Origin: Gammaproteobacteria bacterium
Lineage (GTDB): Bacteria > Pseudomonadota > Gammaproteobacteria > GCA-001735895
DNA: 61,023 bases
Reading direction: 5' to 3'
Assembly: GCA_024232855.1 (NCBI GenBank)
Contig: JAAEPH010000056.1
Coordinates: forward strand, 1-61,023
Position numbers and translations under genes: made by a program. Shown here piece after piece: positions 4,766-61,023 of this stretch (position 1 is its first letter; each line of letters begins with the position of its first letter). The notes under the pieces were generated by a model. That model had not been told where the DNA came from and did no database searches. It was given only the letters and a program-made list of their open reading frames with translations.

Positions 4766-5692
4766 CTATCTTGCTGTATTCATTAATCTTTTTGCCTTCA
4801 ATTCACCGTCCGCGGCGACTTCCCCAAGGCCTATGAAGACGCCCTCTTCGGAGCTCAGCCGACACAGTCCGGAGACCTTGCAAACACCCGCGTCTACCCG
4901 TTTTCCACGACGTATATCGAGACTGTCGGATACATTCAGTACGACTTCCGGAAAATCCGCCAGGGCCGCGCCGACGGGTAGCAACAACTGCTCGAGCCGA
5001 TCCCCCCCCGGCTGTTGCCGCAGGCTTTGCAAATGCTCCATCGTCACCGCGTCACAATCATCAAACGCGCCGACGCGGGAACGATGCAAGGCGGCGAGAT
5101 GCGCACCGCAACCGAGCTGTTTACCAATGTCTTCGGCGAGGGTGCGAATGTAGGTGCCCTTGGAGCAGGACACGTCGATCTCCATGTTTTCATCATCGAA
5201 CCACAACAGCTCCAGTCGAAAAATTTCGATGCGCCGCGGCTCGCGTTCCACCTGCTTGCCCTCGCGCGCCAGTTGATAAAGGCGTTTTCCCTGGTGTTTG
5301 AGGGCCGAGTACATCGGCGGGATCTGATCGATCTCACCGACAAAGCGCGGCAGTAACTCCTCGACCTGGCCGGCGTCGACACAAACCGCCGCCGTTTTGA
5401 CCACTCCACCTTCGGCATCGCCGGTAGTCGTCGTCTGTCCAAGCCGACAAACCGCGCGATAGGATTTGTCAGCGCCTAGCAGATAGCTGGAAAACTTGGT
5501 GGCCTCACCCAGGCATATCGGTAACACGCCGGTTGCAAGTGGATCGAGGCTGCCGCAATGGCCCGCCTTACGCGCGTTGAACAGTTTGCGCACCCGTTGC
5601 AGGGCCTGGTTGGAACTGACACCAATCGGTTTATCCAGAATCAGGATGCCATCGACGTCGCGGTAGCCCCTGGGCTTGCCCCTAGCCCGCAT
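4766..5692 (-). CDS. truB: tRNA pseudouridine(55) synthase; current ATG lies inside a MITE end
   Basis: GILILDKP, KAGHCGSLDPLATGVL, CSKGTYIRTLA; conserved synteny. Confidence 0.97.
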   Translation of the reverse strand: MRARGKPRGYRDVDGILILDKPIGVSSNQALQRVRKLFNARKAGHCGSLDPLATGVLPICLGEATKFSSYLLGADKSYRAVCRLGQTTTTGDAEGGVVKTAAVCVDAGQVEELLPRFVGEIDQIPPMYSALKHQGKRLYQLAREGKQVEREPRRIEIFRLELLWFDDENMEIDVSCSKGTYIRTLAEDIGKQLGCGAHLAALHRSRVGAFDDCDAVTMEHLQSLRQQPGGDRLEQLLLPVGAALADFPEVVLNVSDSLDIRRGKRVDAGVCKVSGLCRLSSEEGVFIGLGEVAADGELKAKRLMNTAR

Positions 5693-5789
5693 ATCTCACC
5701 GTTTTACGTCGCGAGGGCGTCACAAAGACACTGTGGCACGCCGCAGGGAGCAGTTGCCGAGCAGGAAATCGGTGAGATATGCGAGCTAG
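5682..5789. mobile_element. MITE family A, copy 1 (100 bp plus CTAG duplication)
   Basis: CTAG-CCCGCATATCTCACCG...CGGTGAGATATGCGAG-CTAG; first 29 bp identical to the copy at 50503. Confidence 0.85.
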
Positions 5790-39771: not shown

Positions 39772-39947
39772 TTGTCACAGCAGGTAGTTAAAAGAGGTTC
39801 TCGGTAGAGTAGGGGCCAGGCGAAACCTGGCCCCTACTCTACCGAGAACCTGTCCGGGAAGCATCCGCGCCTCTGCGCCTCCGCGAGAACCTTCCTGGTA
39901 AATGTCCGCGCCTCCGCGAGAACCTGCCCGGGAGCATCCGCGGTCTA
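39772..39947. mobile_element. Degenerate MITE/REP composite with group II intron DVI palindrome (core 39804-39842) and tandem CGAGAACC units
   Basis: 57-bp palindrome at 39795-39851; flanks resemble both ends of the element at 41589-41836. Confidence 0.8.
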
Positions 39948-41570: not shown

Positions 41571-41588
41571 ATCCTGCCTGTATGCGGG

Positions 41589-41836
41589 CTAACCCGCACA
41601 TCTCACCGATTTCCTGCTGCGGACGCTTCCTTGGAGGGGTTCTCGCAGAGGCGCGGAGAGCGCAGGGCGCGCGGAGGGTATTTTGCAGGGTGTGTGCCTG
41701 GGCATCTCTGACGCAGACTTCGATAACTTCTTTATCCCCCGCCCCCCCGGCGCTCACTGCGCTCTCCGCGTCTCTGCGAGAACCTTTACTGAAGTAGTCC
41801 CGCGTCGTGGACCTGCTGGTGACAAATGCGGGCTAG
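41589..41836. mobile_element. MITE (family A-type ends) carrying an intact inverted REP pair; empty intron target
   Basis: CTAA-CCCGCACATCTCACC...GGTGACAAATGCGGG-CTAG; 28-bp inverted arms at 41638-41665 and 41757-41784 (one mismatch). Confidence 0.8.
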
Positions 41837-42527: not shown

Positions 42528-42628
42528 GGTTCTCAGCTAAGGTTCTCGGTAGAGTAGGGGCCAGGTTTCGCCTGGCCCCTACTCTACCGCCTCTGCGAGA
42601 ACATTACCGGGGAAGCATCCGCGGGCTA
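42528..42628. mobile_element. Degenerate MITE/REP composite with second DVI palindrome (core 42549-42587)
   Basis: GGTTCTCG|GTAGAGTAGGGGCCAGG-TTTCG-CCTGGCCCCTACTCTAC|CGCCTCTGCGAGAAC. Confidence 0.8.
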
Positions 42629-49183: not shown

Positions 49184-49253
49184 GCGCGTTGCCTTTACTG
49201 TAAATTGGCGGGATTATACAGCAAATTAATTCATAGCCTGTTGCAATTATTAT

Positions 49254-49416
49254 CCTAGAAAACGCAATAGGGCGCGAAAAAGATGTGCAAGCGATTGATT
49301 TAGATAGCGTAATGAAAAAATGCGTGGTCACCTTATTGGTGATAAGCACTTTTTTCATATAGCTAAATGAATCAATCGCTTGTGCAGACTTTCGTGATCC
49401 TACTGCGTTTTCTAGG
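49254..49416. mobile_element. 163-bp fully palindromic AT-rich MITE with ATTAT duplication
   Basis: ATTAT-CCTAGAAAACGCAATAGG...CCTACTGCGTTTTCTAGG-ATTAT; arms pair over most of their length around the loop at 49333-49337. Confidence 0.8.
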
Positions 49417-49465
49417 ATTATTATTAATAACTCTATAAATATTTCATATCGGATAATCGGTACCG

Positions 49466-50506
49466 ATGAATAAATTGACCATCATCAAACCCGACGACTG
49501 GCATCTGCACTTACGCGACTCGCCGTACCTGGAAGCGGTCGTGCGCGACAGCGCTCGCCAGTTCGGGCGTGCGATCATCATGCCCAATCTGAATCCACCG
49601 GTACGCAGCTGTGCCGATGCGATGGCCTATCGCAAACGTATCATGGCCGCGCTCGCCGACGAAAGTGACTTCGAGCCGCTGATGACCCTGTACCTGACGG
49701 ATAACACCAGTGTCGAGGATATCCGCGCCGCCAGCAAATCCACCAGCATACACGGCGCCAAACTTTACCCCGCGGGCGCAACCACGAACTCCGATGCCGG
49801 GGTTACCGACCTGGCGAAACTCGCGCCCGTGTTCGAGGCGATGCAAGACTCCGGGCTGATGCTGCAGGTGCACGGTGAATCGACCGCGAGCGATGTGGAC
49901 GTATTCGATCGAGAGAAGGTCTTTATCGATAAAAGCCTGCAGCGTATTCGTGCGGACTACCCCGAACTACGCATCGTTTTTGAACATATCACGACGAAGG
50001 AAGCGGTCGACTTCGTGCGCGCCGGCGATGTTAATCTCGCTGCCACGATCACGCCCCATCACCTTTTGATCAATCGCAACGCGATTTTCCAGGGCGGCAT
50101 TCGGCCGCATCATTACTGCCTGCCGATCGTCAAACGCGAGCATCACCGACGCGCCCTGGTGGAGGCGGCTGTCAGCGGCGAGACGCGTTTCTTCAGTGGC
50201 ACCGACAGTGCGCCGCACAGCCGCGTCGCCAAGCAATCCGCCTGCGGCTGCGCCGGTATTTACTCGGCCCACAGCGCGCTCGAACTCTATGCCGAGGCCT
50301 TCGATGAACTCGGTGACTTTACCCATTTCGAATCCTTCGTGAGTCTCAATGGCGCCCATTTTTACCGGCTACCGCCAAACCGGGATTCGGTAACGCTACA
50401 GCGGCTTCAGTGGACTGTTCCGGACTCCTTGCCCTACCCCGAATCCTGCTTGATCCCGTTCCGCGCCGGGGAGACATTAAACTGGAAACTCATCCACGAT
50501 GACTAA
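49466..50506 (+). CDS. pyrC: Dihydroorotase (type II)
   Basis: PDDWHLHLRD, KLYPAGATTNS, GTDSAPH. Confidence 0.99.
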   Translation: MNKLTIIKPDDWHLHLRDSPYLEAVVRDSARQFGRAIIMPNLNPPVRSCADAMAYRKRIMAALADESDFEPLMTLYLTDNTSVEDIRAASKSTSIHGAKLYPAGATTNSDAGVTDLAKLAPVFEAMQDSGLMLQVHGESTASDVDVFDREKVFIDKSLQRIRADYPELRIVFEHITTKEAVDFVRAGDVNLAATITPHHLLINRNAIFQGGIRPHHYCLPIVKREHHRRALVEAAVSGETRFFSGTDSAPHSRVAKQSACGCAGIYSAHSALELYAEAFDELGDFTHFESFVSLNGAHFYRLPPNRDSVTLQRLQWTVPDSLPYPESCLIPFRAGETLNWKLIHDD

Positions 50507-50609
50507 CCCGCATATCTCACCGTTTTACGTCGCGATATGCACATGGATATGCAGTAGTAGAGCAATGCAGGAGCAATTGCCGAGGAAATCGGTGAGATAT
50601 GCGGGCTAA
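50503..50609. mobile_element. MITE family A, copy 2 (99 bp plus CTAA duplication)
   Basis: CTAA-CCCGCATATCTCACCG...CGGTGAGATATGCGGG-CTAA; perfect 16-bp terminal inverted repeats. Confidence 0.88.
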
Positions 50610-51213
50610 TATAACCCCGATGTCGCAGCGGTTTCGCGGCTACCTGCCCGTCGTCGTCGATGTCGAGACCGGCGGATTCAACGAAGCCACCGATGCATTG
50701 TTGCAGGTCGCCGCGGTGCTGATCGACATCGATGAACAGGGGCAGTTTTACTGCTGCGACACCGTTTCCTGCCACGTAACGCCGTTTGCCGGCGCCAACC
50801 TCGACCCGAAATCGATGGAAGTGAATGGCATCGATGTCGATCACCCCTTCCGCCTCGCAGTCGATGAAAAGCAGGCATTGCCAAAAATTTTCAAACCGGT
50901 TCGTGAAGCGATCAAGCAGCACGCCTGCAACAAGGCGATCCTGGTCGGGCACAATGCGCACTTCGATCTCAAGTTCATCAACGCGGCGGCCGCCAGGACC
51001 GGCATAAAGCGCAATCCGTTTCACCCCTTCAGTACCTTTGACACGGTAACCCTGGCGGGCCTGGCCTACGGCCAGACGGTGCTCGCGCGCTCGATAAAAT
51101 CGGCCGGTATGGAATGGGATCCAGAGGAGGCGCATTCGGCGATCTACGATGCCGAAATGACGGCAATGCTGTTTTGCAAGATCGTCAACGAAATCGGATT
51201 TGTGCAGCCCTAG
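50599..51213 (+). CDS. rnt: Ribonuclease T
   Basis: [31 protein letters not shown] (DEDDh). Confidence 0.98.
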
Positions 51214-60835: not shown

Positions 60836-60891
60836 CCCCGCATTTCTCACCACCGGATCGACGGCGCGGGACTACTCAATAAAGGTTCTCG
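60832..60891. mobile_element. End of a MITE/REP composite forming the intron 3' exon
   Basis: Reverse complement closely matches 41777-41836; starts at the CTAG containing the nucleotidase stop. Confidence 0.8.
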
Positions 60892-61023
60892 GTAGAGTAG
60901 GGGCCAGGCGAAACCTGGCCCCCCTCGTCAAACGCAGCATGCGGCTTTCCCGCACTACGCTTTCCTGCTGCCTTCACAATAGAGCTATCGCAAGGGAATT
61001 TAGCAGTCAGAGCTGCAACAAGC
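60892..61023 (-). mobile_element. Group II intron 3' end (domains V and VI); remainder outside the window
   Basis: DV AAGCGTAGTGCGGGAAAGCCGCATGCTGCGTTT has the AGC triad, GAAA loop and 2-nt bulge. DVI GAGGGGGGCCAGG-TTTCG-CCTGGCCCCT-A-CTC has the bulged A and ends in AC. Confidence 0.92.

Follow-up and report, generated by a model that had tools for sequence, protein, structure and literature searches.

The junction between pyrC and rnt raises the question of how a gene can retain a usable start once a mobile element has entered its first codons. In the window, which is the whole stretch of 61,023 nt that was analysed, a MITE separates most of rnt from the ATG with which the gene used to begin, and a sequence-only reading had claimed that this element, inserted in the 5' codons of rnt, supplies an in-frame ATG from the end of its inverted repeat. 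The local sequence and the empty sites agree on this point: the MITE landed in the first codons of rnt, and a new in-frame start codon is available at its outer edge, both of which are confirmed. The junction contains the following features.

49466..50506, plus strand: pyrC (dihydroorotase), stop TAA at 50504-50506
50499..50609, plus strand: displaced ancestral rnt start (ATG 50499-50501) and leader ORF of 36 codons, spanning the entire element, stop TAA at 50607-50609
50506..50606, no strand: MITE of 101 nt, arms at 50507-50522 and 50590-50605, TA at 50504-50505 and 50607-50608
50591..50601, plus strand: outward end of the right arm, with SD-like GGTGAG (50591-50596), in-frame TGA (50593-50595), AT, and ATG (50599-50601)
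50599..51213, plus strand: rnt (RNase T) read from the element-borne ATG, 204 aa
50620..50622, plus strand: alternative rnt start, Met7 ('MSQRF'), 197 aa, outside the hairpin, preceded by no SD-like motif, and used in the public record

The insertion totals 103 nt, i.e., the 101-nt MITE and the TA duplication, and falls on the pyrC stop codon and within codons 2/3 of rnt. Its arms are 16-nt inverted repeats without a mismatch, and the pyrC stop is composed of the duplicated TA and the first base of the element. Removal of the 103 nt in silico yields M-T-N-I-T-P-M-S-Q with a start that overlaps the pyrC stop, which is exactly the empty site (MTNITP) that had been reconstructed earlier, and the empty loci of relatives agree with it. 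Two further elements of the sequence-only reading were verified at the same junction: the old ATG now opens a 36-aa peptide that ends at 50609, the last base of its stop lying 8 nt past the end of the new ATG (10 nt past its first base), and the opposite element end carries GGTGAG-AT-ATG in the rnt frame and opens the 204-aa ORF. The encoded protein matches the NCBIfam equivalog profile TIGR01298 for RNase T with 314.9 bits versus a cut-off of 246.2, residues 8-199 being aligned with positions 1-192 of the 200 in the profile.

A search of 31 genomes allowed the pyrC/rnt junction to be read in 11 same-genus loci. The element is missing from all 11, and each of them has an ATG that overlaps the pyrC stop and precedes the 'MSQ' codon (here Met7) by 18 nt. 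The codon aligned to Met7 is ATG in six of these loci, CTG in four and TTG in one, and among 80 more distant RNase T loci, a few of which are out of register, it is ATG in 31. Because the upstream ATG is kept throughout the genus loci, while the Met7 codon varies in the genus as well as in the distant loci, the upstream ATG is, on the evidence of these alignments, the ancestral start of rnt, as had been claimed. Moreover, four public DNA runs were compared with the pyrC/rnt stretch by means of their read contigs. In two of them (X3 and X4) contigs link 50504 directly to 50609 with one G between, which corresponds to the empty site, and the X3 contig shows 4 differences in 151 nt (approximately 97% identical). 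A contig of a third run, 85-90% identical, is likewise empty, and no empty form was seen among the contigs of the run closest to the window. The pyrC stop is TGA in near relatives versus TAA in this genome, and it is this TAA that provides the CTAA target used by the element. The locus of one relative (L005, in genome G006) displays CTAG in rnt codons 2-3, at the same place and in the same frame (codons GCT AGC); the site is unoccupied and would lend itself to an insertion of this type.

A second copy of the same MITE is encountered between rbfA and truB, with the following features.

5685..5786, no strand: second MITE copy, TA at 5683-5684 and 5787-5788
4766..5692, minus strand: truB read from the element-borne ATG (5692-5690), 308 aa
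5794..5796, minus strand: former truB start, an ATG displaced by the element and overlapping the rbfA stop; the N-terminus in close relatives is M-G-V-R-G-K

The truB product now begins M-R-A-R-G-K-P, in the same frame relation as at rnt, and three TruB proteins of at least 90% identity begin M-G-V-R-G/C-K. Since this copy opens truB in frame, the statement that both full copies stand in the rescuing frame holds.

The 15-nt arm has 454 matches in the genome when up to three mismatches are allowed, and at 312 of these a TA stands where it is expected; as the TA flank was the selection criterion, it is present at all 312 ends by definition. A YTAR flank is found at 291 and the ATG is kept at 274 of these ends, and 75 copies with lengths of 36-388 nt could be paired. 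Of the 75 pairs, 63 conform unchanged to a 2-bp TA duplication, the type of IS630/Tc1-mariner elements, as compared to 48 for a 4-bp YTAR duplication (IS5-like). The element at rnt is thus short (101 nt), multi-copy and bordered by terminal inverted repeats, with empty sites in relatives, in agreement with its designation as a MITE. Three DDE_3 matches are present in the genome, none of which has the repeat within reach, their contigs ending nearby, and so a parent IS with the same repeats was not found among them. The plasmid collection likewise contained no annotated IS with these repeats, the matches there being only to the element interior.

For a genome-wide analysis of reading frame, 3523 genes were called with a simple and crude caller that combines ORFs with a codon score. 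The expectation of a frame bias among copies in 5' coding regions was borne out. A plain count, which covered the 139 ends that have the start of a co-directional gene no more than 200 nt away, was flat (50 in frame b, which is the frame of the ATG, 62 in frame a, and 27 in frame c), but a bias emerged from an empty-site test in which each paired element was removed in silico and a canonical start was sought 1-5 codons upstream, in the gene frame and with no stop between. Such a displaced start was detected at 18 of 30 ends in frame b, at 5 of 33 in frame a, and at none of 18 in frame c, where a stop is present by construction. The difference between frames b and a (Fisher p = 2.7e-4) and that between frame b and the chance rate of 22% (binomial p = 8e-6) are to be read in the light of the copies falling in subfamilies, such that events and counts are not fully independent. 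The five frame-a cases are putative, two of them being interrupted by stops and the rest resembling weak or antisense ORFs. In codons 2-6, YTAR sites number 193 in frame b versus 155 in frame a, and CTAG sites are twice as available in frame a as in frame b; with the latter ratio as null, 18 out of 23 gives p = 0.02. Target availability is therefore nearly equal, with CTAG even favouring frame a, and does not explain the frame asymmetry. At 38 ends the ATG is open into a called gene, including the 18 with a displaced ancestral start, and in four of these 38 frame-b ORFs a Met or Val of the gene itself is evident slightly downstream, so that they represent plain intergenic insertions. Relaxed matching of the partner arm added at least three events (rnfG, ubiX, and a response regulator). 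The earlier caution that two cases cannot exclude chance no longer applies, as the 312 ends analysed genome-wide, with their 18/30 versus 5/33, go beyond a two-case coincidence. The element has likewise entered the first codons of about twenty other genes in this genome and provides them with an in-frame start codon, which suggests that it can occupy gene boundaries at little cost.

The genes involved were further characterized by profile alignment. Within a few residues of the element-borne Met, lpxD aligns at residues 2-336 with profile positions 3-341 of 345, and folA at residues 4-158 with positions 2-155 of 160. Full-length alignments that likewise begin near the new Met were obtained for rluC, gpmI, ubiX, hemD, an ABC-2 permease, an OmpR-type regulator, and xdhB. 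The reconstructed ancestral N-termini of truB, lpxD, and folA were matched in relatives, in five out of five genomes each. Moreover, only one copy each of folA, lpxD, hemD, ubiX, gpmI, truB, and rnt exists in this assembly, which is 97% complete, and several of the affected genes lack another start for 15-33 codons. Downstream of the element-borne Met, a canonical start is first encountered at residue 34 in truB, 32 in rluC, 25 in hemD, and 23 in lpxD, and for these four genes, which lack a nearby alternative, a start at a downstream Met is in practice excluded. As judged from these data, the affected genes are real and in need of the new start.

The upstream side of the insertions displays a corresponding pattern. 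At 97 of 303 testable ends the stop codon of a gene reading toward the element consists precisely of the duplicated TA and the first base of the element; at 17 ends such a gene stops elsewhere, and the remaining 189 have no such gene. The genome contains 967 Y-TAR stops in total, approximately 10% of which (97/967) bear an element end. Among the 75 paired copies, a stop codon coincides with one or both ends of 31, and 18 are first-codon events, five of which are also on a stop (rnt/pyrC included), and 31 are neither, which places 44 of the 75 exactly on a stop codon or a first-codon site. The occupancy of Y-TAR stops is far above a rough estimate for other non-coding YTAR sites.

The repeat extends beyond this genome. 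Of 301 genomes sampled from the class, 32 contain its 19-nt end (two genomes flagged as unpublished, G057 and G159, being counted in), and a reversed control gave 0 everywhere. One genome from another family of the class (G117) contains 339 matches to the 19-nt end with at most one mismatch, 115 of them exact, which is twice the number in the present genome and indicates separate bursts of the element in distant lineages. Two other species of the genus yielded three clean start-replacement events from 45 ends, and no clear event was seen among 47 ends sampled from the 115 exact matches in G117, where roughly three would be expected at the rate of the present genome. The interior of the rnt copy without its repeats (50542-50584) matches other genomes of the class and six Pseudoalteromonas secondary replicons (91% identity), and seems to be a separate module.

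As RNA, the element region is predicted to fold into a hairpin (-56.5 kcal/mol, z = -3.4), the 16-bp base of which buries both GGUGAG and the new AUG. No Rfam family was matched in 50300-50800 at E up to 1, and in 50350-50750 a simple consensus match detected no sigma-70-like promoter site on either strand and likewise no terminator-like site. With the SD-like motif and the ATG buried in the hairpin and no promoter-like site near, direct initiation on a read-through transcript looks poor. No public RNA run contained more than 0.06 of the words sampled from the stretch. The leader ORFs that run from the displaced starts end close to the new ATG, i.e., within 12 nt, in 12 of the 18 events. In seven of these the stop is the TGA within GGTGAG, leaving 3 nt before the ATG, in four, including rnt, it is the TA-plus-purine stop just past the ATG, and in one its last base is 12 nt upstream; the leaders of the other events end 39-61 nt upstream of the ATG (five) or run on for 120 nt (one). 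Such a proximal stop occurs in 51 of 150 element orientations overall and in 14% with shuffled interiors, and it is enriched in the start-replacement events (12/18 versus 39/132 of the other orientations, p = 0.003), although subfamily structure links these counts too.

In termination-reinitiation at overlapping stops and starts, an upstream stop lies a few nt from an SD-like motif and an ATG, and translation of the upstream frame opens a masking structure. The predicted hairpin, the displaced start with its own upstream signals in place, and the leader stops beside the ATG led us to propose this process here. The account as a whole, which combines start replacement with termination-reinitiation coupling and frame-dependent survival, is given a probability of about 0.6 and can be modelled as follows. 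A TA-duplicating MITE (arms CCCGCATATCTCACC, target YTAR) entered the TAA stop of pyrC, corresponding to codon 2/3 of rnt in the same operon. Each of its ends presents, in outward order, an SD-like GGTGAG that holds a TGA in the ATG frame, the ATG, two codons, and the duplicated TA as a stop in a second frame; the GGTGAG presumably pairs with 16S rRNA, the gene of which is missing from the assembly. The outcome for the upstream gene is that its stop is retained, and for the downstream gene that an in-frame start is gained while its first one to four residues are changed to M-R-A/V. Initiation would continue at the displaced ancestral ATG, and ribosomes passing through the short element-encoded leader would melt the hairpin, stop a few nt from the new ATG and, to go by the geometry, reinitiate there. 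Copies in the ATG frame would then be nearly neutral and survive, and copies in the other frame would be lost. For the locus at hand, ATG 50599 is probably the main start of RNase T, with a product that begins M-R-A-N-I-T-P, or possibly the form from Met7.

Translation from Met7 (ATG 50620) is the main rival at this locus: the element-borne ATG of rnt would be incidental, the insertion would have been tolerated since a second Met pre-existed, and the product would be a 197-aa RNase T without the ancestral six N-terminal residues. The predicted fold leaves ATG 50620 beyond the hairpin in an unpaired, A/U-rich stretch, the TIGR01298 match begins at residue 8 of the long form, and RNase T is entered in the public record as the 197-aa form, the 204-aa form being absent from it; the same record gives truB as the form from the element ATG. 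The codon is ATG in 6 of the 11 genus relatives but not in the other five, and in only 31 of the 80 distant loci, and this variability implies that native RNase T normally extends further upstream. Moreover, no SD-like motif precedes 50620, and the leader stop at 50607-50609 is about equally near both ATGs. A start at Met7 also leaves truB, lpxD, hemD, and rluC unexplained, none of which has such a second start, and at rnt it is considered a real, though less likely, alternative.

The two other rivals concern the family as a whole. Initiation at the new ATG could be direct if transcripts began inside the element from an outward promoter, in which case the hairpin never forms and coupling is unneeded. 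Outward promoters have been described for Correia elements. They are described for MITEAba12 too, in the accessible part of the report on that element (PMC6382973), but the same simple consensus match to 50350-50750 that detected no sigma-70-like site on either strand, together with the enrichment of leader ORFs ending beside the ATG, which such a promoter leaves unexplained, makes this improbable. The in-frame ATGs could also be a coincidence or by-product of target choice, the element preferring sites near gene starts, the genes being dead or using other starts, and no selection acting on frame. The flat overall frame counts, the very large number of copies in the genome, which fits relaxed selection, and the sample of 47 ends without events in the distant genome G117 speak for this. 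It does not accommodate the contrast of 18/30 with 5/33 at nearly equal target availability, ORFs that are intact and full length against their profiles, the presence of single-copy lpxD, folA, and hemD among the affected genes, or the one-sided preference for the ATG, which a symmetric element should not show, and is regarded as highly improbable. Start replacement with coupled reinitiation remains the preferred reading.

Donation of start codons by repeats has precedents. The accessible text of Adams and Brown (2019; PMC6382973) describes outward-reading start codons at the terminal ends of MITEAba12 from Acinetobacter, and mentions in passing, as 'data not shown', three cases in which a neighbouring gene takes its first four residues (MQQS) from the inverted repeat. 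MITEAba12 is derived from ISAba12, with a 9-bp duplication and outward promoters, whereas the present element has a TA duplication and no promoter was found; in the parts of that report at hand the fusions are given without displaced ancestral start, frame test, stop regeneration, or leader-ORF geometry, all of which are present here. Neisseria REP2 and upstream inverted-repeat sequences of Borrelia, according to the portions consulted of Delihas (2011; PMC3184786), bring a promoter, an RBS, and an ATG that are fused to genes. The likeness to REP2 lies in an RBS-like motif and ATG at the repeat end, in-frame to unrelated genes (38 ends here). As described in those portions (PMC3184786), the REP2 and Borrelia repeats also carry a promoter and a 5' UTR, whereas a simple scan of 50350-50750 revealed no promoter-like site in the present element; they are not classical elements with TIR and TA duplication, and they lie upstream of genes and not within the first codons, no replacement of an existing start being described there. 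Correia elements, RUP, ERIC, YPAL, and RPE are bacterial MITEs with in-frame ORF fusions in the accessible sections of Delihas (2008; PMC2229807), and share with the present family a small size, terminal inverted repeats, TA termini, and hairpin transcripts. In the same sections (PMC2229807) RUP is tied to IS630 via TA targets and has stops in all six frames, and the fusions of this group are internal or 3'-extending, none being described as a start-codon donor to housekeeping genes.

As compared to termination-reinitiation in general, the junction at rnt is located on a mobile element and was created by insertion, and the process is proposed here on the basis of its geometry. Searches of the full-text literature, subscription journals excepted, found no report of a MITE that systematically replaces start codons or regenerates stops, and none of a MITE with such a coupling geometry. 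Start-codon donation by repeats is thus already known, from the 5' fusions of MITEAba12 and from Neisseria REP2, and what appears to be new here are the replaced ancestral starts, the stop regeneration, and the coupling geometry.

If the proposed account is true, a transposon can enter the coding start of essential genes such as lpxD, folA, and hemD without killing, since it brings its own restart signal along; the tolerance of first-codon insertions is proposed to result from that signal. This would require a different reading of 'disrupted' genes in repeat-rich draft genomes, and would provide the ecology of the element with a concrete explanation for its pile-up on gene boundaries. For annotation, the public start call of truB is placed on the element-borne ATG and that of rnt bypasses it, and start calls near such elements therefore need attention. 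For engineering, the element end is a compact natural stop-restart module and a candidate portable translational coupler. A more far-reaching reading is that the inverted repeat, of a family widespread in gammaproteobacteria, may have evolved as a 'boundary-neutral' cassette that rebuilds the stop, supplies an SD-like motif and an ATG together with two stops of its own, re-couples translation across the insertion, and colonises stop and first codons in operons; selection would then act on the element for harmlessness, and housekeeping N-termini would be rewritten as it spreads. This reading is tentative, and we consider it possible rather than probable.

Besides the two copies described, the window contains several other repeats. 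A third element at 41582-41835 has the same inverted repeats and a different interior of 240 nt, directly preceded by a lone repeat tail at 41582-41592, and looks like abutting or nested insertions. An unrelated family of palindromic repeats of approximately 50-66 nt with perfect inverted arms is present at 39785-39851, 42530-42589, and 60873-60922. Finally, a 76-nt imperfect inverted repeat with 74% complementarity lies at 49245-49425, in the intergenic stretch that separates pyrC from the gene for pyruvate dehydrogenase E1.
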